Assembly: GCA_016194445.1 (NCBI GenBank)
Contig: JACQBP010000040.1
Location: 20,402 to 84,401 of the forward strand
Length of the DNA: 64,000 nt
DNA from: Candidatus Liptonbacteria bacterium
Lineage (GTDB): Bacteria; Patescibacteriota; Minisyncoccia; UBA6257; 2-01-FULL-56-20
Direction: 5' to 3'
Made by a program: the position numbers and the translations under genes
Notes under the pieces: model-generated
Told to the model about the DNA's origin: nothing
Databases searched by the model: none
Seen by the model: the letters and a program-made list of their open reading frames with translations, nothing else
Shown here: one piece after another, positions 3,104-50,369 of the stretch
How positions within the stretch are numbered: position 1 is the stretch's first letter
Layout: every line of letters begins with the position of its first letter

Positions 3104-3117
3104 CGGTTTTTCTTTTA
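3104..3117 (+). terminator. third copy of the GCGGTTTTTCTTTT motif, at the convergent junction of the kinase gene and hddC
   Basis: Exact 14-mer shared with 1789-1802 and 2383-2396; T-rich tail; preceding stem is weak. Confidence 0.3.
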
Positions 3118-3936: not shown

Positions 3937-3939
3937 AAG

Positions 3940-4515: not shown

Positions 4516-4563
4516 ATGACTAATAACTTAGGACGGATGACGAAGGATGAGAAATTAATGAAT

Positions 4564-5172: not shown

Positions 5173-5177
5173 ATTAT

Positions 5178-13620: not shown

Positions 13621-14037
13621 ATGACAGATATGAACATGGTTACTTCGTTTTTACTTTTACTCGCTGCTCTGATTACTGCGACAGGACAAATATTAATGAA
13701 AAAAGGATCGCAGGTATTGCAGAAAACACTGACGCTTGTGGCACCGGATCAGTTAGGTGGGGGGTGGTTGAAGAAAATTTTCACGATCACCTTTGAGCCG
13801 CATGTTTTAATAGCATTTACACTATATTTTTTGGGGTCATTTCTATGGTTAAAAATTTTAACCCGGGGAAATTTGGGTTCTCTTTATCCTATACTGATCG
13901 GCATGACCATTTTGATCACAAGCGTCGCTTCAGTATTTATTTTTAAAGAAACATTCACGATTGTGAAAATGGCGGGGGTTATTTTTATCATTTTAGGAGT
14001 GACATTACTTTTAAATTTTGGAATCCAGCACAACTAG
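13621..14037 (+). CDS. small 4-TM DMT/EamA-type membrane protein (ArnE/ArnF- or GtrA-like lipid-linked sugar flippase subunit)
   Basis: 138 aa, four hydrophobic segments, GQILMKKG EamA-like motif; adjacent to a polyprenyl-phosphate GT2. Confidence 0.45.
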   Translation: MTDMNMVTSFLLLLAALITATGQILMKKGSQVLQKTLTLVAPDQLGGGWLKKIFTITFEPHVLIAFTLYFLGSFLWLKILTRGNLGSLYPILIGMTILITSVASVFIFKETFTIVKMAGVIFIILGVTLLLNFGIQHN

Positions 14038-14096: not shown

Positions 14097-14834
14097 TCAA
14101 AGGCGAGGTTTCCTGTAGGATGGGGTAAAATAAATACGCCAGATGAGTTTACTGATAGTGCTCGCGACAAGCAGAAAGTTTTTTAGACTCAAGGCCTTGG
14201 CTTTTCCTCCCTCTCTTTTTTGCAAGCGCGTTTCCACTTCTTCGTAGGAGACGCCGGATTTTATAAGCTCGATTAAAATCTCAGACATAAAGGCGAACCC
14301 AGGTGTCCACCGGGGCAACTGCAGTAAAAGATCACGACGGATAAGACACGCACCATTTAAATAATGTAGCTTAAGACCGAAGAGAATATTGAGTATAACA
14401 ACATAACTACGAGAAATAATCTGTCGCGAGCGGGACCTTATTTCAGCATTTGTCGGATAAGAAATGATAAGATCAGTAACACCAAGTTTCTTAACGACAT
14501 TGATGAGTGTTTGTCCGGACTCTTCGTTATCGCCTGGGACCATCATCACATACTTTCCGCGAGCTTTCTCCACGCCCTGCCGGAAGGCGCCGCCGATATT
14601 ATACGGCTTTTGATTGTGAATAGCGGTGATTTTTGGGAATTCGCTTTTCCGAACCGCGTTATCCATCAGGGCGCCGGTGCGATCGCTGCTTCCATCATTC
14701 ACAAGAATAAGCTCGCACGGCGTTTTAAGCTCGCGAGCTACTTTTTGGATGACGGTTTGGATGGTCGCTTCGATAGCCTGCTCCTCGTTCAAGGCCGGAA
14801 TAATAATGGAAAGTTGGAGTGGAGAATCTGTCAT
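14097..14834 (-). CDS. polyprenyl-phosphate glycosyltransferase (GT2, DPM1/ArnC/GtrB-like)
   Basis: 245 aa short GT2; LSIIIPALNEE...VNDGSSDRT. Confidence 0.6.
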   Translation of the reverse strand: MTDSPLQLSIIIPALNEEQAIEATIQTVIQKVARELKTPCELILVNDGSSDRTGALMDNAVRKSEFPKITAIHNQKPYNIGGAFRQGVEKARGKYVMMVPGDNEESGQTLINVVKKLGVTDLIISYPTNAEIRSRSRQIISRSYVVILNILFGLKLHYLNGACLIRRDLLLQLPRWTPGFAFMSEILIELIKSGVSYEEVETRLQKREGGKAKALSLKNFLLVASTISKLIWRIYFTPSYRKPRL

Positions 14835-15298
14835 TTGGGTTTCGAACTCAACCAGGCAAGAAGATCCCGAAAATCTTCTTTATGATTAAAAGCTAAATCC
14901 ATTTTTAAAATATCCGGAACAGGTAAATAAGAAATTTTTTGTCCTTCGGTATGATAAGTGGTGGCCAGGGATAGATTCGCCAAGGCGTAAAAAACAAAAT
15001 TGTGGTTATACCAAGTAAATTGAGAGTCATGAGAAATCCAGAAGTAGTCTCGGAAAAATCTAATTTTTTGAAGATTAACACCGAGTTCTTCTTTGACCTC
15101 GCGGACGACGGTGACTTCGGGATCTTCAAGCACTTCTAGGGCGCCGGAGATGGGAGTCCATTTACCAGGTTCTCTGGTTGCACTGACCGTCCTTAATTGC
15201 ATTAAAAATTCTCCGTTTGAGTTTTCCAGGTAAATTGACACACCCCGAGCTAGCTTGGGTTCTTTTTTAAAAAAATCCTCGTCTTGGTTAAAAACCAT
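14831..15298 (-). CDS. NUDIX hydrolase
   Basis: Nudix box GALEVLEDPEVTVVREVKEELGV. Confidence 0.55.
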   Translation of the reverse strand: MVFNQDEDFFKKEPKLARGVSIYLENSNGEFLMQLRTVSATREPGKWTPISGALEVLEDPEVTVVREVKEELGVNLQKIRFFRDYFWISHDSQFTWYNHNFVFYALANLSLATTYHTEGQKISYLPVPDILKMDLAFNHKEDFRDLLAWLSSKPK

Positions 15299-15410
15299 GA
15301 GAATGATTATACTCCGGAAAATATTAAATCATAGGTTATAGTCCGCCGCCAAAAAAAGAGCCCCTAAAAGGCGGCTCTTTGATGGGTCCACTTTTTAGGG
15401 TGGACGACTT

Positions 15411-17294
15411 TCAGACTGAAGGCATACTGCCTAAGAACTGGCCGGGTCTTTCGCCCCGGAGTAGAGGCTTAGCGGGTTTTTTCCTCATAAAACGCTTCCA
15501 AACATCGAGCCGCAAGGTTTCGAGGAAGAATGCCCACGTTTCGCGCCTACTTTGGTGCATCGGGTAGACTCGTTTCTGGTGCATGTAGATCTTGGAGGCC
15601 GTATAGAGCCACTGATAAACTCGGGTGACCCAACGGAAAGGTATTTCGGCGAACACGTAGACGATGAGTCTACTGAGCGGTTTCGACAACCACCGCATGA
15701 AGCGGTTCCGACTCCCCGAGAACAAGATACAGACAGTTCCGAGGAGGGCCAGATTTTCCATAACCGTTTTCTCGCGTTCAGTGAAACACCCGACGAGAGG
15801 AGACCGATTTTGGTAGCTGGCGTGTAGAGCGCCGTAGTCGCCGTCAAAGTACCCTTTGCGAATGAGGTATTGGGTGACCTCGGTTCGAGGGTACGGACAA
15901 AGTGTCCCGAATTCGCCAAAGCTAGTGTGTAGGTCGGTAGTGTAGAGCACCGATTGGCGGTCGTAGTCAAGCTGGCTACGGTGTAAGTCGGTTTGCCGGA
16001 GGCGATTTAAGATGAGTTGCCGGCAGGGCAATCCGTCTGGGTTGCTGAATTGGCTACGGATCTCTCGAATGACCTGCCCTAAGTCAACACTCTTTCTCCT
16101 CACCGGTTTGAAGTGTTGCGACTCTTCAACGATCTCCGCCACCTTCTCGTCGAAATCTCGGTCAAGCAGACTCGGGATTTTTGGAGCAGGAATAGCCAGG
16201 ATAGTGTTGGAAAAAGTGCAAATACCCAGCTCCTCGGCGGCTCGGAAGCCTCCCTGGATTTCCTCGTCTGACATGTCGCGGGCAATAATGTGATCCCGAA
16301 TGAAAGAATTGCCCGACTCGATTGACATGGTTAGAGAGAAGATGCCGGCTTGCTTCAGAAGTGGCAGGGCCCAAGGATTTTTCATAACCAGGTCGCATCG
16401 GACTAGGCAGTGAAAGGGCAGACCGACTTGCCTTGGGTAAATCTCGGCAAATTTCTCTAACCACTCACGATCTGGAGGGAAAATGGGAAAGACGTCGTCG
16501 TAGTGCTTGATGAAGCGAGTGGGCCAATCCCTCTTCAGCTTCGCCAGCTCGTCACAATAACGTTCGGGCGAGTATCGTTGGAGGATGTTGCCCTTCCCCC
16601 CATACATTGCATTGAAGTCGTGTTCAAAGCAGTAGGTACAGCGGAATGGACAACCGCGCCCAGCCATGTGCGTTCGTTTGAAGCGCTGGCCGAAAAGCGT
16701 GGTTTGATAAACCAGTTCGCGGTCGAGGTAGGGCAGATCGTCCAGGTTGCTTTTCCGATCCGCATAGAAATCCGGAGTGACATAGGTTTCGGTGTGCGGT
16801 TTCCCGGAGGGATCGATGACGGAAAGTTGTTTTAACACCCGACCACAGTTTCTCTTCGTGATCATGTTCGGGATTTCGTCGATACGGCCAGACCCTTCTT
16901 CGAAAGCATCGAGGAAAGCCGGCCAGGCGTCATCGCATTCAAGAAATCCAATGGCGTCCAGACAAGGTTCTTCGGCGATCACTCCCGGATAGGAGCTGCA
17001 ATAAGGACCACCTAAAACCGTCATCACGCTTGAGCCCATTTTGCTTTTGATGGCGCGCATGATATCGATGTAGGCTCGGTGAGAACCAGTGATGGCACTC
17101 GCTGCCACGATGTTCGGCTTTAGTTCTTCAACAACCCGCATGATGTCATCGCGCTCAAGGAGAGCGAGATGACAAGTCCTCCAGGGAGCGTTTTGTTTCG
17201 TTAGCGCAGAGAGGAGCATGAGGTTCATAGGTTCGGTCATGTCTCCGTCGTCTCGCATAATCCACAAAACACGCGTTTCGCTTTTAAGCGGCAT
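15411..17294 (-). CDS. B12-binding radical SAM protein (class B rSAM methyltransferase-like) with about 250 aa C-terminal extension
   Basis: N-terminal cobalamin-binding-like domain, then CPFRCTYC (CxxxCxxC) radical SAM cluster motif; 627 aa. Confidence 0.6.
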   Translation of the reverse strand: MPLKSETRVLWIMRDDGDMTEPMNLMLLSALTKQNAPWRTCHLALLERDDIMRVVEELKPNIVAASAITGSHRAYIDIMRAIKSKMGSSVMTVLGGPYCSSYPGVIAEEPCLDAIGFLECDDAWPAFLDAFEEGSGRIDEIPNMITKRNCGRVLKQLSVIDPSGKPHTETYVTPDFYADRKSNLDDLPYLDRELVYQTTLFGQRFKRTHMAGRGCPFRCTYCFEHDFNAMYGGKGNILQRYSPERYCDELAKLKRDWPTRFIKHYDDVFPIFPPDREWLEKFAEIYPRQVGLPFHCLVRCDLVMKNPWALPLLKQAGIFSLTMSIESGNSFIRDHIIARDMSDEEIQGGFRAAEELGICTFSNTILAIPAPKIPSLLDRDFDEKVAEIVEESQHFKPVRRKSVDLGQVIREIRSQFSNPDGLPCRQLILNRLRQTDLHRSQLDYDRQSVLYTTDLHTSFGEFGTLCPYPRTEVTQYLIRKGYFDGDYGALHASYQNRSPLVGCFTEREKTVMENLALLGTVCILFSGSRNRFMRWLSKPLSRLIVYVFAEIPFRWVTRVYQWLYTASKIYMHQKRVYPMHQSRRETWAFFLETLRLDVWKRFMRKKPAKPLLRGERPGQFLGSMPSV

Positions 17295-17369
17295 AAGTTT
17301 TCCTCCTTATTTTCAGTTAACAAACAGCTAGTGGAAGGTTAACACAAGCCAGAGAAATAGCAAGTAAAA

Positions 17370-17885
17370 TTAGGGCTGCTCCGAAGATGGAAAAGTCCGA
17401 CAAATTTTTTGGATGATATCGGTAGAATGTGCTAACTCTAAAACAAATTCAACTTTTCCACCGTATGATTCTACTAAGTTTTTATCTAATACGAATCCGG
17501 AAGTGGGATGGGTTTGATACTCCGCACCTTTCACCAAAAAATGAGGCTGCACTGCCTCGATGATCTGGCGGGGACCATAATCATCATTGATAATAACGAA
17601 ATCAACCATCTCGAGTGCGGCGATCCACATTGATCTTAGATTTTGATCGAAAATAGGCCGGTTTGGCCCCTTCCGAACATAGTGGTCACCGACAAGAACA
17701 ACGTAGAGAATATCGCCCTTACTTTTGGCGCGCCAAAAGTAATCAATATGGCCCGGGTGGACAAGATCGAAAACGCCATCACATTGAACCAGCACCTGAC
17801 CTTCTTTTTTAAGTTCCCGAGCTAAGGCGATAAAATCTGCGGGAGTTTTTATTTTTGAGTTAGCTCTTTGATTAACAAAACTCAT
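17370..17885 (-). CDS. cytidylyltransferase-fold enzyme, HldE domain II-like heptose 1-phosphate adenylyltransferase
   Basis: CDGVFDLVHPGHIDYFWRAKSKGDILYV...RPIFDQNLR aligns with RfaE/HldE C-terminal domain (GCFDILHAGH); 171 aa. Confidence 0.55.
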   Translation of the reverse strand: MSFVNQRANSKIKTPADFIALARELKKEGQVLVQCDGVFDLVHPGHIDYFWRAKSKGDILYVVLVGDHYVRKGPNRPIFDQNLRSMWIAALEMVDFVIINDDYGPRQIIEAVQPHFLVKGAEYQTHPTSGFVLDKNLVESYGGKVEFVLELAHSTDIIQKICRTFPSSEQP

Positions 17886-17931
17886 ATCAGCCTTTAAAAG
17901 TTAGCGCGCGGGACGGCGTAACCGCGCTGAC

Positions 17932-18924
17932 TTATACATCTCCGGGAAGTTTCGCCATAAGTTTAAGGATGTCGGCCGTGTCTTCTCCTCTTCCTTCCTG
18001 TGAACTTTTGAAGGCTTCCATGTCAATGTGGTGGACATTCTCGGGAAAAGGAAATTTACGTTCTTTCACCTCTTTTACGTATTGAGAGAATACATCAAGA
18101 ATAACCTGCCCCGCAGTTTTATTCCCGACATCTGATTGGTAGTGTTTGATATATTTTGGCACAGGTCGGGTACCCCAGTCGTAGAAATCAATGGGATCGT
18201 GACCAATTAGAAGTTGCCCATCAGTAAAGCGTCCCGATCCGATACCGTAGACGGGGATTTTGAGCTCGTGATGGATGATTCCAGCAACTTCTTCGGTGAC
18301 GCCCTCGAGAAGAATCGCGAAGGCTCCGGCGTGTTCAAGCGCCTTGGCGGTTTTCAATAATTCCATGGTACTTTCTACGGTTTTCCCTTGGATGCGATGC
18401 CCCCCCATCTCATGAATTTTTTGGGGATTTAAGCCCAAGTGCCCCATGACAAGCACCTCCGCGTTCGCGATCGCCTCAAAGCGAGGAAGAAGCTTCATGC
18501 TCGCCTCACACTTCACCGCAGCACACTTCGCTTCTTTAATAAATCTTACAGCGTTGCGCACCGCATCTTCGTTAGACGCTTGATAGGCGCCCAAGGGCAT
18601 ATCCCCGACCGTAAATACTGGCCCAGCGCCGCGCACGGCGGCGGAGGCAAAAACAATCATCTCGTCCATGGTGACGGGAAGGGTGTTCCCATATCCCAAA
18701 ACTGTCATGCCAAGAGAGTCGCCGACGATAATAACATCGACGCCCGCTTTCGCCGCGGTCCTGGCAAAGGGATAATCATAGATACTCAAGGCCGCCACTG
18801 GAATCCCTTTTTCTTTCATATTCTGAAGGGTCGTGACTTTGACGTCGGAGCGTGGCTTTTTTGGAGACACCTCGAGTTGGGCCGCTGGTTGTGGTGAGTG
18901 CGCGGGATCAATAAGATCTGGCAT
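17932..18924 (-). CDS. PanB-like (ketopantoate hydroxymethyltransferase fold) enzyme with N- and C-terminal extensions
   Basis: LSIYDYPFARTAAKAGVDVIIVGDSLGMTVLGYGNTLPVTMDEM matches the PanB core (MTAYD...VGDSLGMV.LGY.ST.PVT.DDM); 330 aa against about 264 for PanB. Confidence 0.5.
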   Translation of the reverse strand: MPDLIDPAHSPQPAAQLEVSPKKPRSDVKVTTLQNMKEKGIPVAALSIYDYPFARTAAKAGVDVIIVGDSLGMTVLGYGNTLPVTMDEMIVFASAAVRGAGPVFTVGDMPLGAYQASNEDAVRNAVRFIKEAKCAAVKCEASMKLLPRFEAIANAEVLVMGHLGLNPQKIHEMGGHRIQGKTVESTMELLKTAKALEHAGAFAILLEGVTEEVAGIIHHELKIPVYGIGSGRFTDGQLLIGHDPIDFYDWGTRPVPKYIKHYQSDVGNKTAGQVILDVFSQYVKEVKERKFPFPENVHHIDMEAFKSSQEGRGEDTADILKLMAKLPGDV

Positions 18925-18982
18925 AATTTTAAACGATAGGCTATTAGCAGGAAAAGGTCAATCTTGGAATTTGATCTCCAAA

Positions 18983-20155
18983 CTAATGCTCCTGTGTAAA
19001 GTCACGGATCTGCTCAACTGCTTTTTGAAGTTCCTGCAATGGAGCGGCAAAACTGAGACGTACATACCCGGGCGCAAGAAAGGCTTCTCCGGGAACCACG
19101 GCTATTTTTTTCTCATCAAGGAGACGGGCGCACCACTTGGCAGACGTGCGGATCTTTCCTTTAAGAAGACGGCGAACATCAATGAAGAAATAAAAGGCTC
19201 CCTCTGGCGGCGCGAAGGAGATCCCATTGATTTTTGAGAGCGCGTTGATTAGAAATTGTCTCCGAGTTTGAAACTCCCGAAACATAAGATTTAACGACTT
19301 TTGAGAACCGGAAAGAGCGGCAAGCGCGGCCTTTTGCGCGATAGAGGAAGTGTTTGAAGTAGTTTGGCTCTGAAGCGAGGTGATGGCCTGAATGATCCAC
19401 TTGGGGCCGGCAGCGTATCCAATTCGCCACCCAGTCATCGCGTAAGCTTTAGAAAATCCATTGACGGTGAGAGTGAGCTCCTCGATACCCGCACCGAGCG
19501 ACGCGATAGAGTGGTGTTGGCCTTTGTAAAAAATCTTCTCGTAAATCTCATCGGATATAACGAAGAAGCCTTTTTTCTTCGCAAGATGCGCGATTTTGAT
19601 CAATTCAGATTTTTTAATCACCGCTCCGGTGGGATTAGAGGGACTATTCAGAAGGAGAGCTTTAGTGTGGCGAGAAACCTTATTTTGAACATCTTGAGCG
19701 GTAAGTTTAAACGGAGGGAGAAGCGGAATAAAAACGGGGGTGGCGCCGGAAAGCTTAATTTGTTCAACGTAGGTAGTCCAGGTGGGAGTGGGAACTAAGA
19801 CCTCATCCCCGCGACCACAGAGCGCTTGAAATGCATGGTAGAGAACTTGTTTTGTCCCCACGCCGACAACGATTTCGCTGGGCTGGTAATGGATATGGTT
19901 GTCACTCAATAATTTTCGAGTAATGGCTTTCCGAAGCTCAAGAATACCCGGCGTTTCGGTGTAGTGCGTAAAACCTCTTGCCATCGCCAACGCCGCCGCC
20001 CTTCGGATATAAAGAGGGGTTGGAAAATCAGGTTCTCCTAGCCCGAGGTTAATAACCGGGATACCGGATGTCTGTAGGGCTTTGACTTTTTCATCAAGCG
20101 CGAGAGTGGGCGAAGAAGAGAGGTGTTGCACTCGGGAAGATAAAGCATCTCTCAT
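18983..20155 (-). CDS. class I/II PLP aminotransferase (AspAT-like)
   Basis: NPTGAV and SKAYAMTGWRIGY (PLP lysine region); 390 aa. Confidence 0.65.
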   Translation of the reverse strand: MRDALSSRVQHLSSSPTLALDEKVKALQTSGIPVINLGLGEPDFPTPLYIRRAAALAMARGFTHYTETPGILELRKAITRKLLSDNHIHYQPSEIVVGVGTKQVLYHAFQALCGRGDEVLVPTPTWTTYVEQIKLSGATPVFIPLLPPFKLTAQDVQNKVSRHTKALLLNSPSNPTGAVIKKSELIKIAHLAKKKGFFVISDEIYEKIFYKGQHHSIASLGAGIEELTLTVNGFSKAYAMTGWRIGYAAGPKWIIQAITSLQSQTTSNTSSIAQKAALAALSGSQKSLNLMFREFQTRRQFLINALSKINGISFAPPEGAFYFFIDVRRLLKGKIRTSAKWCARLLDEKKIAVVPGEAFLAPGYVRLSFAAPLQELQKAVEQIRDFTQEH

Positions 20156-20180
20156 GGGCGTATTATACCGCAGAAACTCC

Positions 20181-22016
20181 TTACTCCAGCTTCTGCCATC
20201 CCTCTTTTTCTTTTTTCCTCGGAAGTGGATCCACGATCATATTCCCAAGAAATTCTTCATCAGGTAGATAGGGTTGCATGTCTTCAAGCGGCCTTCCAAA
20301 ATTAAGTCTGGGAACAAGCGTTTGGTTGGTATCGATGAGTACATTACAGATGACAGGCCGGTCGCTTTTCAAAGCTTTCTCGATAGCGCCCGCCATTTCG
20401 TCGGGTTTCTCGACAGCAAAGGCATCAATCCCATAGGCCTCGGCAACCTTTACAAAGTCTGGCATGGAGTAACCACCCTCGGGAGTGCTGGCGTAATAGC
20501 GACCATCAAAATAATTATCTTGGAACAGCTTGATAATACCCATACTGCGATTGTTAAGAATAAAAAGCTTAATCGGCAATTTATAGTGCGCGATAGTTTG
20601 AAGTTCTTGAATATTGAGCTGGACGCCACCATCGCCATCTAGACAAACAATCTTCTTCCCCGGAGCGGCGAAGGCAGCGCCAATAGCGCCGGGGACCGCG
20701 TATCCCATCGGAGAATTGGCAAAGGCCGTGAGTAACTTTTGACCAGATTTGATTTGCCATGATTGCATCGTCCAGACCAAATTGCCACCCTCGTCAACAA
20801 CAATAATCTCTCCTGGTTTAACGTGATCAGAGAGAGTTCGAACGAATGAGTAAGCATTAATGAAGGGCTGATTAAAATATTCAGGAAGTACTGAAGGATA
20901 TTTAAGCCACCATTCGTTCGTTTTCTTAACCCACAAATCCGCGTCAGGAATTTTCGCCGTCGCGAGTTCTTCCAGCACTCCGGCAAGAAACTCTTGGGCA
21001 TCCCCACAAACCTCGATGGCTGGTTTAAAATCTCGATACTTCTTAAACTCGGCCGGGTCAATATCAACCATAACGACCTTGGCGTTACGGGCAAACCAAT
21101 CGACTTTGCCACCAGTTTGCCGAGAGTCTAACCGAGAACCAACCGAGAGGATAAAATCACTGTTCTGGATAACAAAATTAGCCGCTCGGTTTGAATAAAC
21201 TCCCAGTGAACCTCGAAAGAGTGGGTGGTCGTGGGGAATAATATCAAAACCACCCCAGGACACCACCACCGGGATACCTAACTTCTCAAGAAGAATCCGG
21301 GCCGACTCTTCGGCTTTCGCGTGTTTGACTCCTCCACCAAGCAGAAAAACCGGTCGCTTAGAATTAGATAACAAGGCAACAGTTTCGCTCGCTTTTTTTC
21401 TTAAAATATTTTTAGGATCTGTGGAGGAATCGCTTGTTGCGGGTGGAGTAAATCCTTCGAGTAAATCAACATCGATATCAGTAACTTGAAGGTTCATAGG
21501 GAGATCAATTAGAACTGGCCCCGGTCTCCCGGTGGTGGCAATCCAATAGGCTTTTTCTAATTCGTAGCGGATGCGTGAGGGATCAGAAATCCAAATCGCA
21601 TATTTCGTGATGGGTTTTACGATATTCACAATATCGGTTTCTTGAAAGCCGAGTTGACGAGGACGCAGGGGTCCCTCGACGCTCTCAATGGATTCCCGAA
21701 CATTAACCTGACCAGTGATGAAAAGAGCGGGGATAGAATCAAAATAACAATCACAAATCCCTGTGATTAAATTAGTTGCCCCGGGGCCGCTGGTAGCGAT
21801 GGCAACGCCGATGCCGGGTCCGATGCGTGAATAGTTCTCGGCAGCCATGGCAGCGGCTTGCTCGTGTTGCATGCAGACATAGTTCAAATCCCCTTTTTCC
21901 GCAAACCGTCTTCCAATGGCATCTACTAGATGCGCCACGGAACCACCGGTTACTGAAAAGATATGTTGGGTGCCGCGCTTGGCTATAAAATCCACAAGAT
22001 AATCAGTCAGTTTCAT
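20181..22016 (-). CDS. thiamine-pyrophosphate enzyme of the acetolactate synthase large-subunit family
   Basis: N-terminal TPP-Pyr domain (GGSVAHLVDAI...GPGATNLITGI) and C-terminal TPP-PP GDGG motif (LDGDGGVQLN); 611 aa. Confidence 0.7.
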   Translation of the reverse strand: MKLTDYLVDFIAKRGTQHIFSVTGGSVAHLVDAIGRRFAEKGDLNYVCMQHEQAAAMAAENYSRIGPGIGVAIATSGPGATNLITGICDCYFDSIPALFITGQVNVRESIESVEGPLRPRQLGFQETDIVNIVKPITKYAIWISDPSRIRYELEKAYWIATTGRPGPVLIDLPMNLQVTDIDVDLLEGFTPPATSDSSTDPKNILRKKASETVALLSNSKRPVFLLGGGVKHAKAEESARILLEKLGIPVVVSWGGFDIIPHDHPLFRGSLGVYSNRAANFVIQNSDFILSVGSRLDSRQTGGKVDWFARNAKVVMVDIDPAEFKKYRDFKPAIEVCGDAQEFLAGVLEELATAKIPDADLWVKKTNEWWLKYPSVLPEYFNQPFINAYSFVRTLSDHVKPGEIIVVDEGGNLVWTMQSWQIKSGQKLLTAFANSPMGYAVPGAIGAAFAAPGKKIVCLDGDGGVQLNIQELQTIAHYKLPIKLFILNNRSMGIIKLFQDNYFDGRYYASTPEGGYSMPDFVKVAEAYGIDAFAVEKPDEMAGAIEKALKSDRPVICNVLIDTNQTLVPRLNFGRPLEDMQPYLPDEEFLGNMIVDPLPRKKEKEGWQKLE

Positions 22017-22100
22017 AAAATTTATAATATTCAGCTCAACTGCTGTTTATGTTGGCTTTTCGAACAGAGGGATGGGGTGGAGGTAATATTTGAGATTGTT

Positions 22101-23231
22101 TTAGTTTTGAATGCAGAATTGATGAATAGCCTCGCAAACATAATGAATGTCTTTGGGTTTTAAATATTGGTGGATGGGGAGGGTGACCATGGTTTCGGCT
22201 TGCTTTTCGCAGACCGGAAAATCTCCTTTCTTATATCCCAAATACTTAGCGGCTTCTTGAAGATGAATAGGGATGGGATAATGGACCAAAGCCTCAATCC
22301 CTTGGTTTTTCAAAAATTTAATAAGTTCTTTTTGCTGCTCAGTCTGGATGACGTAAAGGGTGTAGATTGGTTTCACTGGCACTTTGCACAAATCTCGCTT
22401 GGGGATGTGGACTTTCGGCTCTAAATCGGAAAGGAGTTGGTCGTAAAGTGCTGCATTCTGAGCTCTTTTTTCGGTATTTCCTTCAACTTCACTTAAAACG
22501 ATGCTCGCGATGGCGGCTTGAATCGTATCAAGTCGGCTGTTGTGAGCAAAAAAGATAACTTCGTCGCGATTTTTCAACCCGTGGTTCCTCCAAAGCCGAA
22601 GCTTCTCGGCGAGTGCATCGTTGTTGGTAGTAATCATACCGCCGTCACCCCAAATGTTGACGATTTTTTGTGGGTGAAAACTGAACCCAGCGGCATCACC
22701 AAAAGAACCGACATACTTATTGTCGTACATAACTGACGAAGACTGGGCGGCATCTTCGATGACAAAAAGATTGTGACGCTTGGCAATGTCTAAAATAGGA
22801 TACATGTCCGCAGGATTGCCAAAAAGGTGGACTGGGACGATGGCTCGAGTTTTTGAAGTGATGGCTTTTTCTACCGCCTCCGGGTCGATAGTGTAATCGT
22901 CGCGCACATCAGCGAAGACTGGTCTAGCGCCGGCGGTAGCGATAGCCCCAGCGGTGGCGATGAAACTGTTTGGAGCAGTAATAACTTCATCGCCTTCTTT
23001 AATGCCTAAAGCACGAAAGGAAAGGAAGAGGGCATCAGTACCGTTGCCGACGCCGATGGCATGCTTGATCCCGAATTTTTTTGCGTATTCTAACTCAAAA
23101 TCTCTTGCTTCTTGACCAAGAGTAAAATCGCCCCTTTTGGCAATTTCTTGAATTTTGAGAAGGAAGCGTTCGGGGTTTTTGAACTGTTCGGTTAGATATA
23201 CATAGCGAACTTTCCAGTTAGGCTGTTCCAT
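22101..23231 (-). CDS. DegT/DnrJ/EryC1/StrS-family sugar aminotransferase
   Basis: GDEVITAPNSFIATAG and the FHPQK.. lysine region; 376 aa. Confidence 0.7.
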   Translation of the reverse strand: MEQPNWKVRYVYLTEQFKNPERFLLKIQEIAKRGDFTLGQEARDFELEYAKKFGIKHAIGVGNGTDALFLSFRALGIKEGDEVITAPNSFIATAGAIATAGARPVFADVRDDYTIDPEAVEKAITSKTRAIVPVHLFGNPADMYPILDIAKRHNLFVIEDAAQSSSVMYDNKYVGSFGDAAGFSFHPQKIVNIWGDGGMITTNNDALAEKLRLWRNHGLKNRDEVIFFAHNSRLDTIQAAIASIVLSEVEGNTEKRAQNAALYDQLLSDLEPKVHIPKRDLCKVPVKPIYTLYVIQTEQQKELIKFLKNQGIEALVHYPIPIHLQEAAKYLGYKKGDFPVCEKQAETMVTLPIHQYLKPKDIHYVCEAIHQFCIQN

Positions 23232-23274
23232 AATAAGCGAATTGTACTATAAGAATTTAGGGCTGGCAAGAATT

Positions 23275-24288
23275 TTATTTTAATTTGATTTCCTGCATGG
23301 TCTTCACGTTAAAATATTTGGTGTTGTTGAGTGAGTCTTCAAATTTTCCTGCTTTAAACGCTTCGATAAGGTCAGAAACAGCTCCACGGATGTCTCTTTT
23401 GGGTTTAAATCCTAGTTCTTTAAATATTTTCTCGGATGATATGTGGTAGGATCTTTTGTCGTCGCCGGCTTCTTGATGGTTAACCTTAACACTATTGCCA
23501 CTTGAGGATTCGACCTCCGATTTGACGATGTTGGCAATTTCAGAAACGGTATAGTTTCTGGCGCCAGCGTTGAAAACTTTAGAGTGAATTTTTTCACTAG
23601 GATGCGATAGGAGGTCAGAATAAAGATCGGTAATGTCTTCAATGTGGATGTTGGGCCTTTTTTGCTCGCCACCAAAAACAGTGATAATACCTTTACTCCA
23701 AGCGTGATTAGTTAAAATGTTTACTGTTAGATCAAAACGCATGCGAGGAGAATAGCCGCAAACCGTTGCCGACCGGATCGCCACTGCAGTAAAATAAGGG
23801 GCTCCTTCTTTCATTAAGATTTCTTCGCCTAACACTTTGAATTTGGAATAATCAGTGAGTGGTTCAAGGGGCAAATCTTCGGTGATGTTTTCTTCCTGTT
23901 TTAAACCATAGACACTCGAGGTGGAGGCAAAGATGAAACGTTTCACTTCAGCTTGGCGCGCGTGGGATACGACCTTGATCATGGCGTCGTAGTTAATTGA
24001 TTTGCCAAGTTCGGGATTTAACTCAAAACTCGGATCGTTAGAAATACAGGCAAGATGAATAACGGCATCAACGCCCAGAAGGGCTTCGCTCAGAGTATTG
24101 TCATTACGGATATCGCCATGAATTTCTTCGAGGTTGGAATTTCGGTAACCGGCAAAAACGTTAGGTTCATATAAATACAAATCAAGCACTTTGACGCGAT
24201 AGCCTTTCTTTAATAGTTTGGGAACTAAAACAGAGCCGACGTATCCAGCCCCGCCAGTGACTAAAACCGTCTGGATATTACTCATCAT
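23275..24288 (-). CDS. NAD-dependent epimerase/dehydratase (extended SDR)
   Basis: VLVTGGAGYVGS Rossmann motif; 337 aa. Confidence 0.65.
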   Translation of the reverse strand: MMSNIQTVLVTGGAGYVGSVLVPKLLKKGYRVKVLDLYLYEPNVFAGYRNSNLEEIHGDIRNDNTLSEALLGVDAVIHLACISNDPSFELNPELGKSINYDAMIKVVSHARQAEVKRFIFASTSSVYGLKQEENITEDLPLEPLTDYSKFKVLGEEILMKEGAPYFTAVAIRSATVCGYSPRMRFDLTVNILTNHAWSKGIITVFGGEQKRPNIHIEDITDLYSDLLSHPSEKIHSKVFNAGARNYTVSEIANIVKSEVESSSGNSVKVNHQEAGDDKRSYHISSEKIFKELGFKPKRDIRGAVSDLIEAFKAGKFEDSLNNTKYFNVKTMQEIKLK

Positions 24289-24300
24289 TGGACATAGGGC

Positions 24301-25836
24301 CTAGTTTTTGAGCAGAGTGTTGATAGATTTTAACAAGGTGTTGGATTCAACGGAATGTTTGTTGCCCACGATAGTGACAGCTAGAGCTCCGACGGCATTA
24401 CCGATAAAACCGGCGGCTTCTACGGGCAGGCCAGCCCGGACTAAGGGCGAGGTGATGGCTAGAAAAGCATCACCGGCGCCAACCCGATCGAGAACACGAG
24501 TCGAGAGTACAGGAACTTTGTAAAGTTTTTTACCATCATACGATAAACAGCCCTCGTGGCCGAGGGTAACGATGATTCTTTTGGCCTTAAGTTTGTTGGT
24601 AACGGCGGCTAAAATTTCTTTCCATTCGTCCAGAGAAGCGACTTCTTTTTTCTTGGTGATCAGTCGGGCTTCTAAGTGATCAATACAGACAAAATCGGCG
24701 CGCGGATATTTGGTGGCCATATTGAAGCCAAAGTTAGCGCTGTTGGTTTGAGTATTCAAGGCCAGAAAGGGAGCATTGTGACTGAGGTAATCAATGAGGC
24801 GAGGAGTGAGGAGTCCGTGGCCGTAGTCTGCCACGATGACTAAATCATACATGGGTAAAACTTTTTTTAAATGGCTTAGAATTTTTTTCTCAAGAGCTTC
24901 GGGAATGAGCGAGTCTACGAAGTAGTAGACTTCAAACATTTTAGTTAGAAGTGGAGAGTCAATGAATCGCCGTTTGACGATGGTAGGGGCGGTGGGGTGA
25001 TAGAAAAATTGGGGCCGAACATTGGATTTTAGATGGGCTCGAATGAACTTTTCCTTGCTGTCTTTGGCGCCAAGACAAGTAAGGAGGTCAACTTGTTTGC
25101 AGTAACTAGTGAGGTGGTTCGCGCAAGCGATGGAGCCGCCGGCAAAAGCCTCTTCGTGTTCGTACCGAGCGGCAATAATGATATCTTTGGGCGTTTTATT
25201 CATGGCTCGCACATAGTGATACTCGTCAATAATCGCCTCGCCGATGATTAAAACTTTGTAATTTTTGATTTTTTCGAAGTAGCCCAAGATGTCTTCGAGG
25301 CTGAACCTTTTTTGAAATCCTTGGAGGAATTCTTGGGTGGCTTCGGGATAGGGAGTCAAAAAATTATTAATTAGTTTAGTGGAGCTGAAGGTGATGTCAT
25401 CGGTAAACTCGATTTTGCCTCCGACCTTTTTGACAGCTTCAGTTTCCTTATTAATACCGCCGCTGCTAATGGCCCTTTTCTTGCCGTATTCATTACCTTT
25501 GATATAAAAACTGGGTCGCACCGCATAAATGGCCGGAACGGCGGTGGGAGCATCATTCACGGCCACAAAATCAACGGCCGTCAAAGAAGCGACAGCTTCG
25601 GCTCTTAATTGCTCATTAAAGATGGGCCGGTCAGGACCTTTGTTGACATAACGATCCGAAGTAACGGTGACCACTAAGATATCCCCTCTTTTTTTAGCGG
25701 CGGCGAAATGGCGGATGTGGCCAGGATGGAGTAAATCAAAGACACCGTGGCATTGGACGATGCGTTTATGCTTGGCTTTCAAATCACGAAGTACGGGCGC
25801 AAGATTATTAAGTTTGTAAACTTTATTGACTGCCAT
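24301..25836 (-). CDS. bifunctional cytidylyltransferase + PfkB sugar kinase (HldE-like, reversed domain order)
   Basis: N-terminal CHGVFDLLHPGHIRHF adenylyl/cytidylyltransferase domain; C-terminal PfkB domain ending in DRVGAGDAFLA; 511 aa. Confidence 0.6.
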   Translation of the reverse strand: MAVNKVYKLNNLAPVLRDLKAKHKRIVQCHGVFDLLHPGHIRHFAAAKKRGDILVVTVTSDRYVNKGPDRPIFNEQLRAEAVASLTAVDFVAVNDAPTAVPAIYAVRPSFYIKGNEYGKKRAISSGGINKETEAVKKVGGKIEFTDDITFSSTKLINNFLTPYPEATQEFLQGFQKRFSLEDILGYFEKIKNYKVLIIGEAIIDEYHYVRAMNKTPKDIIIAARYEHEEAFAGGSIACANHLTSYCKQVDLLTCLGAKDSKEKFIRAHLKSNVRPQFFYHPTAPTIVKRRFIDSPLLTKMFEVYYFVDSLIPEALEKKILSHLKKVLPMYDLVIVADYGHGLLTPRLIDYLSHNAPFLALNTQTNSANFGFNMATKYPRADFVCIDHLEARLITKKKEVASLDEWKEILAAVTNKLKAKRIIVTLGHEGCLSYDGKKLYKVPVLSTRVLDRVGAGDAFLAITSPLVRAGLPVEAAGFIGNAVGALAVTIVGNKHSVESNTLLKSINTLLKN

Positions 25837-26014: not shown

Positions 26015-26560
26015 TTAGGCGCTGGGAATGAGGGCGCGGTATTTCTTGATCAACTCTCGCGCCAAGAGAGTGATGTGTAACTGGCCGTAAACTCGCTCGA
26101 CGGTGGTGACGAGTTTTTTCATAAACTCAATCCACTCGCCAAGGATCTGAGGATAGAAATCGCCGCCATCATAGAGCGTCGCGGTTTTATCGTAGAGCTT
26201 TAGGAGTTGAATCAGTGGCGGCTTACTTAGAACTGCAACTTTCTCTTCCTCAAATCCTCCCTGATAGGTCATCTCATCAACAAGACGCCTGACTTCTTCG
26301 GGTAGATCGTTGGGAAGATCGGCGGAGGTGTCCTCGAAGACATCATGGAAAAGAAGCGCATACGCTCCAGGAATTCGAATGTTCTCTGGTAATTGGGTAT
26401 CCAGAAGGAGCATCACCGCACACCAGAGAGAGTGGGTCCAGTAGGGATTTTTTTCTCCGTTCTGGAAGGTACGGACCGCCTTCGCATTAGGTCGTGTGTG
26501 ATTGTTATGCGCCTCCGCGGCGGCAATAAGGTGTTGGAGGAATACCTGCGTATTGAGCAT
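26015..26560 (-). CDS. HD-domain phosphohydrolase (YfbR-like 5'-nucleotidase family)
   Basis: H...ALLFHDVFED HD motif; 181 aa; in a GC-richer segment. Confidence 0.5.
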   Translation of the reverse strand: MLNTQVFLQHLIAAAEAHNNHTRPNAKAVRTFQNGEKNPYWTHSLWCAVMLLLDTQLPENIRIPGAYALLFHDVFEDTSADLPNDLPEEVRRLVDEMTYQGGFEEEKVAVLSKPPLIQLLKLYDKTATLYDGGDFYPQILGEWIEFMKKLVTTVERVYGQLHITLLARELIKKYRALIPSA

Positions 26561-26596
26561 GCGATCACCTCGATGGGTTGGTTTGAGCCGTAACCC

Positions 26597-27283
26597 TTAT
26601 AGCTGGCTGGCGGTTTGATACCAGATCGAATCCGGAGATTGGATCAGGCCCCAGCACCTGAAGCGCCAGAGGGCGGCTTGGGTGAGACTACAGATGGTTT
26701 TGATCTTACGCACCTCTTCGGGAGGGAAGAATCGCACATGATCGATCTCTTCGTTTGGTTCGGGATGTGATCCAGAAGATCCCAGACCTACCAAAGTCGC
26801 GAAGAGTTCGTGGGCGGCTCCACTAAGCGCTGGGAGGGCGTGGACAAAACCGATGGAGGCCGCCTCTACGACTTTGAGTCTCATTTCCTCCAGCACTTTC
26901 TCTAAAGGAGTGAGAGCGAGGCCATGAACAGCCTCGTATTCCTCGATGCCGGAGCCATACTTTAGAACGCCCAGGATCTGGCTGGGATCTCTGGCGAACG
27001 CAACCGCCGAAATCTCTGGCGGAATGACACTGAACCGCCGATGGAAAACAAACCCCAGATGTCCATCGGACTGACGAATCACGATATGAAGTTCACCCCG
27101 CCGTGATTCAATGGCGATGCCTTCATAGGCCACCTCTCCGGTTGATACATTAACCGCATCGATGATTTGGATGGCCGCGCCGTGAATTGCGTTTTCGAGT
27201 CGGCGTTTCCTCGGATCCCACCGCCATTGTTTTCCAAACCGGCTCTCGGGTCCGGGTGGACGGACGATTAGTCTTGTGCTCAC
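26597..27283 (-). CDS. hypothetical protein (228 aa), possibly a degenerate NUDIX-fold
   Basis: Intact ORF in the GC-rich segment; no clear motif. Confidence 0.35.
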   Translation of the reverse strand: MSTRLIVRPPGPESRFGKQWRWDPRKRRLENAIHGAAIQIIDAVNVSTGEVAYEGIAIESRRGELHIVIRQSDGHLGFVFHRRFSVIPPEISAVAFARDPSQILGVLKYGSGIEEYEAVHGLALTPLEKVLEEMRLKVVEAASIGFVHALPALSGAAHELFATLVGLGSSGSHPEPNEEIDHVRFFPPEEVRKIKTICSLTQAALWRFRCWGLIQSPDSIWYQTASQL

Positions 27284-27521
27284 TCATAACTCCTTTCTAT
27301 GAAAATAGCTACCGTTAAATTCGTTTCCGTGGGTTAGCTCAAGATGCCAAAAAGCTGACTATATTATACTGATGATGAAAGAGAAGTCAAAAACCACGGG
27401 CTTTAGCCTGTGGTTTGAGAGTTGTTCTCTCCTGCGAGAGAAACTGGCTTGACCCTCAGCCTAAAGACCGGGGCTTGCGCTTGGAGTGTCAACGCGGGGA
27501 TGCGGAGCCGTGATATTGCAA

Positions 27522-27923
27522 TCACGGCTCCACTCGACGACCAGCAAGGAAATCCTCAAATCGCTTCCTTTCTTGTCTTTTTCTCTGTCTCTCGTCGAGA
27601 TGGCACCATATCCAATCTATCCACCAAATTGGCACAGCGCCAACGAGTGTAACGGAAAGATGCCAGTGACCCCAAAAAGGGATGGTGGGGTTCACGCGAG
27701 CTTGTTCCAGATCGGCGAGAAAAAAGGTGACGACAAAAAAAGACAGGAGACCGATTCCAAGGATGTGGGACTTTTCAAGCCAACCACCGACGATAACGCC
27801 AATGGCGCCCATGAAAATTCCTTGCAGGACAGTGAATCCAAGGTGCTTAGTAGCGATCACTGAAGTAACGAGAAACAAGGCAGTGAAGCCTATGGTTTCT
27901 CGCTTGGACCTTGTGGGTGACAA
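27522..27923 (-). CDS. hypothetical small membrane protein
   Basis: 133 aa with several hydrophobic helices; preferred over the overlapping + strand ORFs, which are less protein-like. Confidence 0.3.
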   Translation of the reverse strand: MSPTRSKRETIGFTALFLVTSVIATKHLGFTVLQGIFMGAIGVIVGGWLEKSHILGIGLLSFFVVTFFLADLEQARVNPTIPFWGHWHLSVTLVGAVPIWWIDWIWCHLDERQRKRQERKRFEDFLAGRRVEP

Positions 27924-28024
27924 GTGTGCCTCCTAGTTTCAACCCAAATCCACGTGGATTTGGGGCTGGCCACAATATAGGACTTTAAAAAAATAAAGTC
28001 AAGCCGACTAACTTTCTTTTTTAG

Positions 28025-43503: not shown

Positions 43504-43589
43504 AAAATAGATTTAGATAATAATTAAGCCTATTCAATCTAAGATAGAAAGTCTTTTTTGTAAAGGAGAAATAGAGGATTTCCTTGGAG

Positions 43590-49388: not shown

Positions 49389-50369
<981 letters not shown>

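Follow-up and report, generated by a model that had tools for sequence, protein, structure and literature searches.

We analyzed a 64,000-nucleotide stretch of DNA (hereafter, the window) from a Candidatus Liptonbacteria bacterium, a source described as a tiny-genome groundwater bacterium (contig JACQBP010000040.1, positions 20,402 to 84,401), focusing on a block of eight co-directional open reading frames (ORFs) on the minus strand at positions 15411–25836. Spacing between the ORFs is 12–84 bp. Starting from its upstream end, the block encodes a protein resembling HldE with reversed domain order (24301–25836, 511 aa; CTP_transf_like at residues 30–140, PfkB at 194–496), a short-chain dehydrogenase/reductase (SDR) of the epimerase/dehydratase type (23275–24288, 337 aa; Pfam Epimerase, 131 bits), a DegT aminotransferase (22101–23231, 376 aa; DegT, 355 bits), a thiamine diphosphate (ThDP) enzyme with the TPP_enzyme N, M and C domains (20181–22016, 611 aa), a class-I aminotransferase (18983–20155, 390 aa; Aminotran_1_2 PF00155, 266 bits), a PanB-like protein (17932–18924, 330 aa; Pantoate_transf PF02548, 286.8 bits), an HldC-like nucleotidyltransferase (17370–17885, 171 aa; CTP_transf_like, with rfaE domain II as the best NCBIfam match) and a radical S-adenosylmethionine (rSAM) enzyme (15411–17294, 627 aa; Radical_SAM PF04055, 45 bits, and B12-binding PF02310). 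Profile searches against Pfam and NCBIfam bore out the domain content that the initial annotation of this DNA had given for all eight ORFs, including the reversed order in the HldE-like protein. Its count of ten genes is reached only if a NUDIX hydrolase gene (14831–15298) and a family 2 glycosyltransferase (GT2) gene (14097–14834) are added, eight lying within 15411–25836.

The block is part of a glycan island of about 50 kb, located roughly at 3115–53929 in the window annotation, which contains many GT2, GT4 and FkbM-methyltransferase genes together with Wzx, Wzy, YfhO, RmlA/RmlB, and Gmd with Fcl-like proteins. The string of genes recurs at 69–84% protein identity on the contig of another metagenome-assembled genome (L009), and an identical contig is present in a Logan assembly, so the block is no chance pattern. 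The annotated ORFs of the 64-kb window include none of ilvC, ilvD, ilvN, panC, panD and panE, and an Rfam scan of the whole window returned no riboswitch or other RNA family.

The PanB-like protein exceeded the curated PanB cutoffs (278.4 vs. 272 bits for NF001452 and 231.2 vs. 207.55 bits for TIGR00222). In a midpoint-rooted neighbour-joining (NJ) tree, it fell within a clade apart from all other PanBs, including the Escherichia coli and Mycobacterium tuberculosis enzymes; its relatives at 47% identity or above form at least 100 clusters. The residues D45, S46, D84, K112, E114, H136 and E181 (E. coli numbering) are all at least 95% conserved in both the clade and ordinary PanBs. Further, 13 clade-diagnostic substitutions were found at positions that are at least 60–100% invariant in 88 other PanBs, several of them adjoining catalytic residues; the motif changes include K-x-E-GG to K-C-E-AS, GHLGLTPQS to GHxGLNPQK, LExVP to LEGVT and GIGAG to GIGSG. 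The conserved catalytic set and the 13 changes would fit a retained 2-oxoacid enolate chemistry with an altered substrate.

Gene context was sampled for about ten clade members. A YerE-like gene was located within 10 kb of the clade PanB in the window and in the related loci L006, L007, L008, L009, L020, L101 (where it is split) and L102, and a transketolase-type ThDP gene was found near the clade PanB of L100. Control PanB loci were taken from a metagenome scan (80 among the matches listed, 38–48% identity) and from a scan of genome contigs with the window PanB (eight loci, 34–44% identity), the latter giving 11 loci in all, three of them close. No TPP-enzyme homolog was found at any of the 20 control loci with at least 5 kb of flank on both sides; with flanks of at least 3 kb, one was detected only at L020, which groups with the clade, and at L031. 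The association of the PanB clade with ThDP enzymes gave a Fisher p of about 2e-5 by lineage and 2e-6 by locus. PanE or PanD adjoins PanB in 5 of 7 sampled controls, and no pan gene was found in the window or in any examined clade locus. These results show a distinct PanB clade confined to glycan loci with ThDP enzymes; tree, context and the 13 substitutions together uphold the suggestion of the initial annotation that the PanB-like gene was repurposed.

We infer that the PanB-like protein makes a 4-hydroxy-2-oxoacid donor for the neighbouring ThDP enzyme. Because clade-invariant extra Lys, Asn and Glu residues lie near the active site and the partner aminotransferase is of the aspartate aminotransferase (AspAT) type, a small or acidic substrate (pyruvate or oxaloacetate) would be as plausible as α-ketoisovalerate. 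A phosphonate pathway, with phosphoenolpyruvate (PEP) mutase, phosphonopyruvate decarboxylase, 2-aminoethylphosphonate transaminase and a Fom3-like rSAM enzyme, was also considered and rejected, since the 330-aa protein truly belongs to the PanB family (287 bits) and the TPP enzyme has the full length and the three domains of the acetolactate synthase/YerE type.

The ThDP enzyme (20181–22016) was compared with proteins of known structure by phmmer searches of the PDB. It matched JanthE (8RPH) at 377 bits and 5AHK, which we take to be PpYerE, at 345 bits. No acetohydroxyacid synthase (AHAS) scored above 279 bits, and glyoxylate carboligase did not exceed 230 bits. Its score for the IlvB equivalog TIGR00118 was below the cutoff (432.7 vs. 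538.35 bits), and the other AHAS equivalogs were far below theirs. The LDGDGG motif of the enzyme aligns with GDGG of PpYerE, and an insertion of about 10 residues after the GQV motif is common to the enzyme, 8RPH and 5AHK and absent from Arabidopsis AHAS. The Trp that determines acceptor specificity in AHAS (W574 in Arabidopsis, W464 in E. coli AHAS II) is replaced by Phe, as in PpYerE. All homologs from eight related loci of the Candidate Phyla Radiation (CPR) have the insertion, and carry Phe or Thr (the latter JanthE-like) at the Trp site, with one Trp. The Arg of the RFDDR motif was dropped as a separator between AHAS and YerE, being kept in both the ThDP enzyme and PpYerE.

The gene is flanked by those of the reversed HldE, SDRs and DegT, with RmlA/RmlB, Gmd and several SDRs elsewhere in the island, and no ilvN/ilvH, ilvC or ilvD partner was found among the annotated ORFs of the window. 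Judged from its sequence, the enzyme is a YerE-type carboligase and not an acetolactate synthase; PDB scores, insertion and Phe site agree with the earlier suggestion that an acetolactate-synthase-like gene was diverted from branched-chain amino acid housekeeping. Its predicted reaction is the transfer of an acyl group, derived from a 2-oxoacid, to the keto carbon of a nucleoside diphosphate (NDP)-keto-sugar. The 8RPH entry is cited in an engineering paper on JanthE, a ketone-accepting YerE-like carboligase, and PpYerE and JanthE are the two solved YerE-like structures (PMC12247030).

The class-I aminotransferase (18983–20155) lies between these two genes. It contains the S-K236 motif of the pyridoxal phosphate (PLP)-binding lysine, and its best NCBIfam match, archaeal AspAT, was below the cutoff (402 vs. 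550 bits). Relatives at 55–65% identity are generic AspATs from many CPR lineages and other phyla, and one at 63% adjoins genes for PEP carboxylase, malic enzyme and fructose-1,6-bisphosphatase. Repurposing, as had been envisaged for this gene as well, is not borne out, since it groups with housekeeping AspATs. The order TPP enzyme–aminotransferase–PanB, with gaps of 25 and 58 bp, is kept in three Liptonbacteria-type loci, namely the window, L006 (65% identity for the aminotransferase) and L009 (72%); gaps of this size and an order conserved in three genomes point to co-transcription of the three genes. The aminotransferase would supply a 2-oxoacid from an amino acid.

Regarding the activation of the sugar, the HldE-like protein (24301–25836) has its nucleotidyltransferase domain, with an HxGH motif (HPGH), ahead of the PfkB kinase domain, with a GAGD motif, which is the reverse of E. 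coli HldE. Its best NCBIfam matches were HldE and rfaE domains I and II, under every equivalog cutoff (NF008454, 143 vs. 521 bits; TIGR02198, 105 vs. 345 bits; TIGR02199, 103 vs. 181.5 bits). Its homologs adjoin SIS/GmhA and HAD/GmhB genes in L003, L004 and L020, and the protein is predicted to phosphorylate and nucleotide-activate a heptose. The substrate may also be a sugar longer than a heptose, as in the logic of the lincosamide enzymes LmbN/P/K/O. The HldC-like protein (17370–17885), which has an HxGH motif and reached 112 bits vs. a cutoff of 181.5 bits for rfaE domain II, is a predicted second, stand-alone sugar-phosphate activating enzyme; its gene is directly upstream of that of the rSAM enzyme in the window and in L002, and is also present in L004 and L009.

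A GDP-heptose-type set on the minus strand at 3115–6200 comprises, by Pfam, an HddC-like NTP transferase, a GmhB-like HAD protein, a GmhA-like SIS protein and an HddA-like GHMP kinase. The GmhA/GmhB-like genes within it (3940–5172) encode the sole isomerase and phosphatase of the window and presumably also serve the reversed-HldE route. The SDR gene after this set (6260–7375) gave family matches in two pieces, residues 7–133 and 171–352, implying an insertion of about 40 residues at the junction of the Rossmann and substrate domains.

Keto- and amino-sugar formation could be assigned to several genes. The SDR at 23275–24288 matched GalE, LegB and heptose-epimerase profiles of NCBIfam, all under cutoff, and has homologs in L003 (54%, after a reversed HldE and a SIS gene) and L009 (71%); it is a candidate heptose C4/C6 oxidoreductase or YerF-like branch ketoreductase. 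A second SDR, of the 4,6-dehydratase/4-epimerase type (28025–29029, minus strand; Epimerase 213 bits, GDP_Man_Dehyd 205 bits), matched the NCBIfam LegB-type 4,6-dehydratase (186 bits) and GalE (182 bits), has homologs in L009 (72%) and L020 (44%), and is a candidate for making the keto-sugar acceptor. The DegT protein matched PseC and 4-amino-4,6-dideoxy sugar transaminases best in NCBIfam. Because its catalytic Lys189 is present (motif S184-F-H-P-Q-K189), it is a PLP-dependent sugar aminotransferase and not an E1-type 3-dehydrase. Farther along the island, at 42775–44660 and 49389–51874, lie genes for RmlB (432 bits vs. a cutoff of 365) with an RmlA-like protein and for Gmd (Pfam, 469 bits), the latter accompanied in the island by two GDP-fucose-synthase-like SDRs and a second NUDIX protein; therefore, at least three different NDP-4-keto-6-deoxy sugars should be available in the island.

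The rSAM enzyme (15411–17294) has the motif C215-x3-C219-x2-C222 (CxxxCxxC), invariant in 57 homologs, and a PF02310 match of 28.9 bits, the gathering score being 32.1; most homologs have a precomputed PF02310 match. Its full-length homologs at 40–65% identity form at least 100 clusters, and every named one is labelled Patescibacteria. The enzyme has a B12-like Rossmann domain at its N-terminus and a helical domain of about 230 residues at its C-terminus. Its AlphaFold2 model (pLDDT 90.3) matched class-B rSAM folds, with CysS, OxsB, TokK and AprD4 at the top in Foldseek. AprD4 was both the best PDB sequence match and the best structural match; it acts on sugars as a 1,2-diol dehydratase and binds no cobalamin. 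The fold resembles cobalamin binders and the cobalamin-free AprD4 alike, and the designation of the enzyme as cobalamin-dependent in the initial annotation is thereby not established.

In the four sampled loci L002–L005, the rSAM gene is accompanied by a reversed HldE or a separate PfkB and nucleotidyltransferase, always by an E1 alpha/beta or YerE-type ThDP enzyme, and usually by SIS and a GT2 of about 245 aa; PanB and the aminotransferase are absent from these loci. Conversely, the rSAM gene is absent from L006, L007, L008 and L009, the last having a histidine-phosphatase-like ORF (208 aa) instead. Because these four loci do without it, the rSAM enzyme is to be seen as an optional tailoring step and not as the maker of the acceptor. 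The idea that it makes the keto acceptor was downgraded, as the branching module occurs without it in L009 and L006.

A cobalamin-independent, AprD4-like 1,2-diol dehydratase, which would convert an NDP-sugar to an NDP-3-deoxy-4-keto sugar and thus replace the pyridoxamine phosphate-dependent E1/E3 pair, is a possible but rather unlikely identity for this enzyme. NDP-3-deoxy-4-keto sugars are the classical type of YerE acceptor. The margins over cobalamin-dependent methylases were small (MgmA 20.9, CysS 19.6, TsrM 19.0), and Foldseek placed CysS, OxsB and TokK first. Further, the 627-aa length with a C-terminal domain of some 230 residues is TokK/CysS-like, in contrast with the 454 aa of AprD4; most homologs match PF02310; and the acceptor can be made without an rSAM enzyme, as L006–L009 indicate. 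The size, the C-terminal domain and the PF02310 matches incline us towards a C-methyltransferase, favoured over AprD4-like deoxygenation and in itself about an even call.

A second B12-like rSAM paralog (about 550 aa, 33% identical to the window enzyme) was observed in L005 (14392–16038), L020 (4580–6136) and L102 (7915–9576), where it adjoins PanB and/or a YerE-like gene and a reversed HldE; both paralogs are found in L005. An rSAM-SPASM gene, a DAO oxidoreductase gene and an adh_short gene recur in L004, L005 and L102.

Comparison of the related loci showed that the block is a composite of independently distributed modules, at odds with its initial description as a single unit. Almost the whole block is found in L009 (PanB 82%). 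A second Liptonbacteria genome (L006, PanB 81%) has the order SDR-SDR-TPP-AT-PanB (AT, aminotransferase), without rSAM and reversed HldE. TPP-AT-PanB without rSAM is thus seen in L006 and L009, and rSAM without PanB or the aminotransferase in L002–L005. L007 (PanB 64%) combines TPP, DegT and PanB with a C-methyltransferase, SIS, PfkB and nucleotidyltransferase genes and a GT9 heptosyltransferase. L008 (62%) has E1 alpha/beta, TPP, a split transketolase, PanB and a GDP-heptose set, an architecture shared by L100 (59%), where the flank stops in the transketolase gene. In L020 and L102 (Yanofskybacteria, 48%), reversed HldE, SIS, the second rSAM paralog, PanB, TPP and GT2 occur together. L101 (59%) is a nonulosonic-acid locus in which the neighbour of PanB is a split YerE-like enzyme, and L011 (65%) is too short to judge.

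Three of these loci deserve a further remark. L009 corresponds to CAYTEE010000013.1 (12.7 kb), which is labelled 'uncultured Candidatus Saccharibacteria' yet has the gene order of the Liptonbacteria window; mis-binning, a wrong label or lateral transfer could be behind this conflict. In L101 (8103–10927), two ORFs, divergent in orientation to the clade PanB, make up the split YerE-like protein; one corresponds to the N-terminal half of the window protein (51% identity) and the other to its C-terminal half (45%). NeuB, a NeuC-like epimerase, a CMP-sugar synthetase, a formyltransferase and a HisH/HisF-like pair are encoded there, which suggests that acyl-branching may also be applied to non-heptose sugars. 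Across L002–L004, L008 and L100, all three ThDP types proposed for sugar branching were observed, namely YerE-like, E1 alpha/beta (alpha-KADH2-type) and split transketolase, with several of them in the single locus L008. Ketone acceptance by the transketolase type is unproven according to a review (PMC12247030).

Taken as a whole, the genes from 25836 to 14097 would form a nucleotide-sugar tailoring operon, the product being a heptose-type sugar, aminated and with an acyl branch, that would go into a glycan of the cell surface, a model to which we give an even chance. In this model, GmhA/GmhB and the reversed HldE, possibly with the small nucleotidyltransferase, would produce an NDP-heptose, which an SDR would oxidize or dehydrate to an NDP-keto-sugar. 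The AspAT-type aminotransferase would convert a scavenged amino acid to a 2-oxoacid, CPR bacteria being generally devoid of amino-acid and 2-oxoacid biosynthesis. The PanB-clade enzyme would then hydroxymethylate this 2-oxoacid at its C3 enolate by means of 5,10-methylene-tetrahydrofolate (THF), giving a 4-hydroxy-2-oxoacid, and the YerE-type enzyme would decarboxylate this donor and transfer the acyl anion equivalent to the sugar ketone, leaving an acyl branch on a tertiary alcohol. DegT and the SDRs would aminate and reduce leftover keto groups, with the rSAM enzyme as an optional late tailoring step. Finally, the GT2 would load the sugar onto polyprenyl phosphate, an EamA-like protein would flip it, and YfhO would transfer it outside the cell. 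A side chain derived from a 2-keto acid, as the initial annotation had proposed, remains the best reading.

The most likely acceptor is an NDP-keto-heptose, because the reversed HldE adjoins GmhA/GmhB in L003, L004 and L020 and heptose genes occur in L007, L008 and L100. As for the donor, YerE-like enzymes are known to couple γ-hydroxy-2-oxoacids to a keto-sugar in erwiniose, caryophyllose and gastriose biosynthesis (Steitz et al., PMC9306805), where a pyruvate aldolase encoded in the cluster (ErwI, MMAR_2331 or MygI) supplies the donor; amino-acid transamination is named as another donor route (PMC9306805). Pyruvate is not accepted by ErwE, whose donors are 4-hydroxy-2-oxobutanoate, -pentanoate and -hexanoate (PMC9306805). 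In vitro, ketopantoate hydroxymethyltransferase (KPHMT, the PanB enzyme) and YfaU form 3-substituted 4-hydroxy-2-oxoacids from amino-acid-derived 2-oxoacids and formaldehyde (PMC11331486). By analogy with the scheme of the former study and the KPHMT chemistry of the latter, the triplet of aminotransferase, PanB and YerE-like enzyme would amount to two published cascades joined, following the ErwI-to-ErwE logic of erwiniose, except that PanB would take over from the pyruvate aldolase.

Several points weigh against this model. Every chemical step in it is deduced from genes. By sequence, the aminotransferase is indistinguishable from a housekeeping AspAT, and its link to the pathway is through synteny only; most loci with PanB and YerE-like genes lack it, and it could be a passenger gene. 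The identity gap of the ThDP enzyme is small (36–37% to YerE-like proteins vs. 33% to AHAS), in a pairwise comparison with three references taken from the alignment output that did not include YerE, ErwE or MyGE. The PanB tree is an NJ tree without bootstrap support whose clade members were chosen by similarity to the query, three of the roughly ten sampled contexts are Liptonbacteria-like, and at L031 a PanB outside the clade is paired with a YerE-like gene. The RmlA/RmlB and Gmd routes of the island lead to dTDP- and GDP-4-keto-6-deoxyhexoses, which are alternative acceptors. Moreover, DegT is by similarity of the C4 type; it and the ThDP enzyme would be competitors for a 4-keto group.

Alternatively, the PanB-clade enzyme might hydroxymethylate the sugar itself, either at an enolisable carbon of the NDP-keto-sugar or at the methyl ketone of an acetyl branch installed from pyruvate by the YerE-type enzyme. 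If true, this would give a C-hydroxymethyl-branched or extended-branch sugar and the first folate-dependent C-branching of a sugar. The clustering of the 13 substitutions by the metal- and substrate-binding motifs is compatible with a larger or different substrate, co-occurrence with all three ThDP types would be expected of an enzyme that modifies their products, and the order of the aldol and ThDP steps in the ErwE-type precedent needs experiment. However, Ser46 and Lys112, which presumably bind the substrate carboxylate in 1M3U, are kept in the clade together with the Mg ligands, which argues for retained binding of an α-keto acid. In the tested precedent, chain extension precedes the ThDP step, pyruvate being rejected by ErwE (PMC9306805), and KPHMT is promiscuous on free 2-oxoacids (PMC11331486). 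We consider this alternative improbable.

A slightly slimmer chance falls to a route that yields, through the joint action of the ThDP enzyme, PanB and the aminotransferase, a free non-proteinogenic hydroxy-amino acid or hydroxy acid, for example homoserine- or pantonine-like, that is N-acyl- or amide-linked to the DegT amino sugar with no C-branch. DegT with its catalytic Lys is encoded directly upstream, the aminotransferase could run towards the amino acid, cascades of KPHMT and a transaminase do give γ-hydroxy-α-amino acids (PMC11331486), and the two ORFs at 26015–27283 could hide a ligase. However, neither the block nor the annotated island yielded an ATP-grasp protein, an acyl-CoA ligase, an acyltransferase or a carrier protein. 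Nor does the YerE type of the ThDP enzyme agree with such a route, the enzymes IlvC and IlvD that would lead from acetolactate to the PanB substrate are absent from the annotated ORFs, and the aminotransferase is missing from most loci with PanB and ThDP genes.

The conjunction in which the PanB clade is a folate-dependent C-hydroxymethyltransferase acting on an NDP-keto-sugar or its branch and the rSAM enzyme is a cobalamin-free NDP-sugar diol dehydratase replacing E1/E3 is very unlikely; if true, it would define a new class of highly branched higher-carbon surface sugars in CPR bacteria. Finally, that the acetolactate-synthase-, PanB- and AspAT-like genes are ordinary genes for branched-chain amino acids, pantothenate and aspartate that ended up in the island by chance is barely credible: PanB does pass its NCBIfam cutoffs and the aminotransferase is close to housekeeping AspATs, but the window lacks the annotated ilv and pan partners, the ThDP enzyme is of the YerE type and under the IlvB cutoff, the sampled clade PanBs are always in glycan loci and never by pan genes, as opposed to ordinary PanBs by PanE/PanD, and the tight TPP-AT-PanB order recurs in three genomes.

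On the downstream side, the operon of the preferred acyl-branching model would extend into two genes on the minus strand. The NUDIX hydrolase (14831–15298; Pfam NUDIX, 53.5 bits) is a candidate NDP-sugar pyrophosphatase; of the PanB-clade loci, L007 and L100 contain NUDIX genes too. The short GT2 (14097–14834, 245 aa; Glycos_transf_2), with weak NCBIfam matches to ArnC, PpgS and dolichyl-phosphate hexose transferases, is probably a polyprenyl-phosphate sugar synthase; a GT2 homolog of about 245 aa accompanies the rSAM and reversed HldE genes in L003, L004, L005, L020 and L102. Next to it, on the plus strand, a small EamA/TMEM234-like membrane protein is encoded (13621–14037; EamA and TMEM234 just below their gathering scores), a candidate flippase for the lipid-linked sugar. 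It adjoins a GT2 in L006 as well, and GtrA-like proteins take that position in L003 and L004. A YfhO-like GT-C membrane glycosyltransferase (29862–32198, minus strand; Pfam YfhO on the C-terminal part) is the candidate extracytoplasmic transferase for the lipid-linked sugar, and a YfhO-like gene (829 aa) is also found in L006. The resemblance of this trio, shared with L006, to a three-component extracytoplasmic glycosylation system suggests a route for export, modelled on CsbB/GtrB-YfhO-type systems.

Two ORFs of 228 aa and 181 aa lie directly upstream of the block (26015–27283, minus strand), with which they may share a transcript. They had no Pfam or NCBIfam match, and a permissive Pfam search gave nothing credible; in L009, a homolog of the 228-aa ORF (26597–27283) with 58% identity occupies the corresponding position. 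Further upstream, 27284–28024 (about 740 bp) is GC-rich, with no annotated gene, overlapping ORFs of 125–133 aa on both strands and no Rfam match. The two best promoter-like sites of the region are at 27390–27363 (11 of 12), just upstream of the two ORFs, and at 28002–27974. A terminator-like hairpin with a T-run (15360–15372, minus strand) immediately 3' of the rSAM stop codon is a possible end of the transcription unit, with a TATAAT-like hexamer between it and the NUDIX start. Because the counts of promoters and terminators in the region did not exceed the shuffle expectation, the operon limits rest on gene spacing and this one hairpin.

A step in base composition was also observed inside the block. 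The five genes from rSAM to TPP have a GC content of 0.46–0.53 and a GC skew near 0, in contrast with the flanking glycan genes, including DegT, SDR and reversed HldE (GC 0.39–0.45, skew +0.1 to +0.23). GC is likewise high (0.50–0.53) in the two upstream ORFs and in the gap at 26–28 kb. From this step, the rSAM-to-TPP sub-block may have a separate origin. Elsewhere in the island, a DAO-family ORF (44737–45582, 281 aa) covers only positions 100–352 of the 353 of its profile and is missing the N-terminal FAD-binding part, with about 370 bp of non-coding DNA upstream, up to 45953; it may be a truncated or pseudogenised oxidoreductase, or its start may be mis-called. RNase Y (54157–55680) marks the island end. 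Past it, up to 63728, are genes for iPGM, a small holin-superfamily-IV-like protein (57876–58346), an SBP_bac_5 solute-binding protein, a ComM/Mg-chelatase-like ATPase and a Fic/DOC protein.

If the acyl-branching model is true, ultra-small CPR bacteria use the same branching logic as Yersinia, Pectobacterium and mycobacteria, with a new donor-forming enzyme in the form of a PanB lineage recruited from vitamin B5 biosynthesis. Organisms with a minimal metabolism appear to invest heavily in elaborate surface-sugar chemistry, which is relevant to attachment to and interaction with a host. The 13 diagnostic residues and the neighbouring ThDP enzyme provide a signature that separates the clade from true PanBs. 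This matters for annotation pipelines, which call clade proteins pantothenate enzymes and can thereby inflate the inferred biosynthetic capacity of CPR bacteria. The proteins are also candidate biocatalysts for cascades of KPHMT and YerE-type enzymes to chiral tertiary alcohols, and the rSAM enzyme represents a large family tied to nucleotide-sugar chemistry.

Among known systems, the class B rSAM C-methyltransferases (TokK, CysS, GenK, Fom3) and AprD4 are the nearest to the rSAM enzyme, which differs from them in being only 11–17% identical to any solved member, in having no NCBIfam equivalog near its cutoff and in its family being tied to heptose and ThDP modules. The HldE or HldA plus HldC and HddA/HddC pathways share the PfkB and cytidylyltransferase-fold domains and the GmhA/GmhB-like genes of the island; in contrast with them, the window has the domain order reversed, a second stand-alone nucleotidyltransferase and a parallel GHMP/NTP-transferase route. 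The PanB clade has the fold of KPHMT (EC 2.1.2.11; 1M3U from E. coli, 1OY0 from M. tuberculosis) and about 40% identity to it, and differs in N- and C-terminal extensions (median 309 aa vs. 281 aa); KPHMT itself accepts many 2-oxoacids, giving 4-hydroxy-2-oxoacids (PMC11331486). With PpYerE and JanthE, the ThDP enzyme shares the three-domain fold and the post-GQV insertion, and its Phe and canonical GDG are those of PpYerE, unlike the CDG motif of JanthE. YerE of yersiniose A biosynthesis in Yersinia pseudotuberculosis uses pyruvate for an acetyl branch and has no donor-making partner, in contrast with the arrangement proposed here.

The closest counterpart is the erwiniose cluster of Pectobacterium atrosepticum (ErwI and ErwJ, then ErwE and ErwF), in which a YerE-like ThDP enzyme and a Mg-dependent enzyme of 2-oxoacid enolate chemistry likewise occur in a sugar-nucleotide cluster with SDR reductases and glycosyltransferases. 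The caryophyllose (MMAR_2331/2332) and gastriose (MygI/MyGE/MygF) clusters belong to the same 'unifying scheme for acyl-branched sugars' (PMC9306805). The published erwiniose, caryophyllose and gastriose enzymes make outdated the view that acetolactate-synthase-like enzymes of sugar clusters are known only as YerE, and what had been described as an unprecedented combination is a variant of this scheme (PMC9306805). The window, which belongs to a Patescibacteria host, differs from erwiniose in that the predicted donor enzyme is of the PanB family, with a one-carbon unit from methylene-THF, instead of an HpcH/BphI-type pyruvate aldolase; in that activation is of the heptose type (reversed HldE, GmhA and GmhB) and not by CDP-3,6-dideoxyhexose genes; and in the addition of DegT and the rSAM enzyme. 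A full-text literature search found no paper linking PanB/KPHMT to branched sugars, the survey of Krug et al. (2024) being outside its reach. Relative to these systems, the novelty lies in a predicted donor enzyme of the PanB type, in the heptose-type setting within the CPR and in the rSAM family that goes with it.

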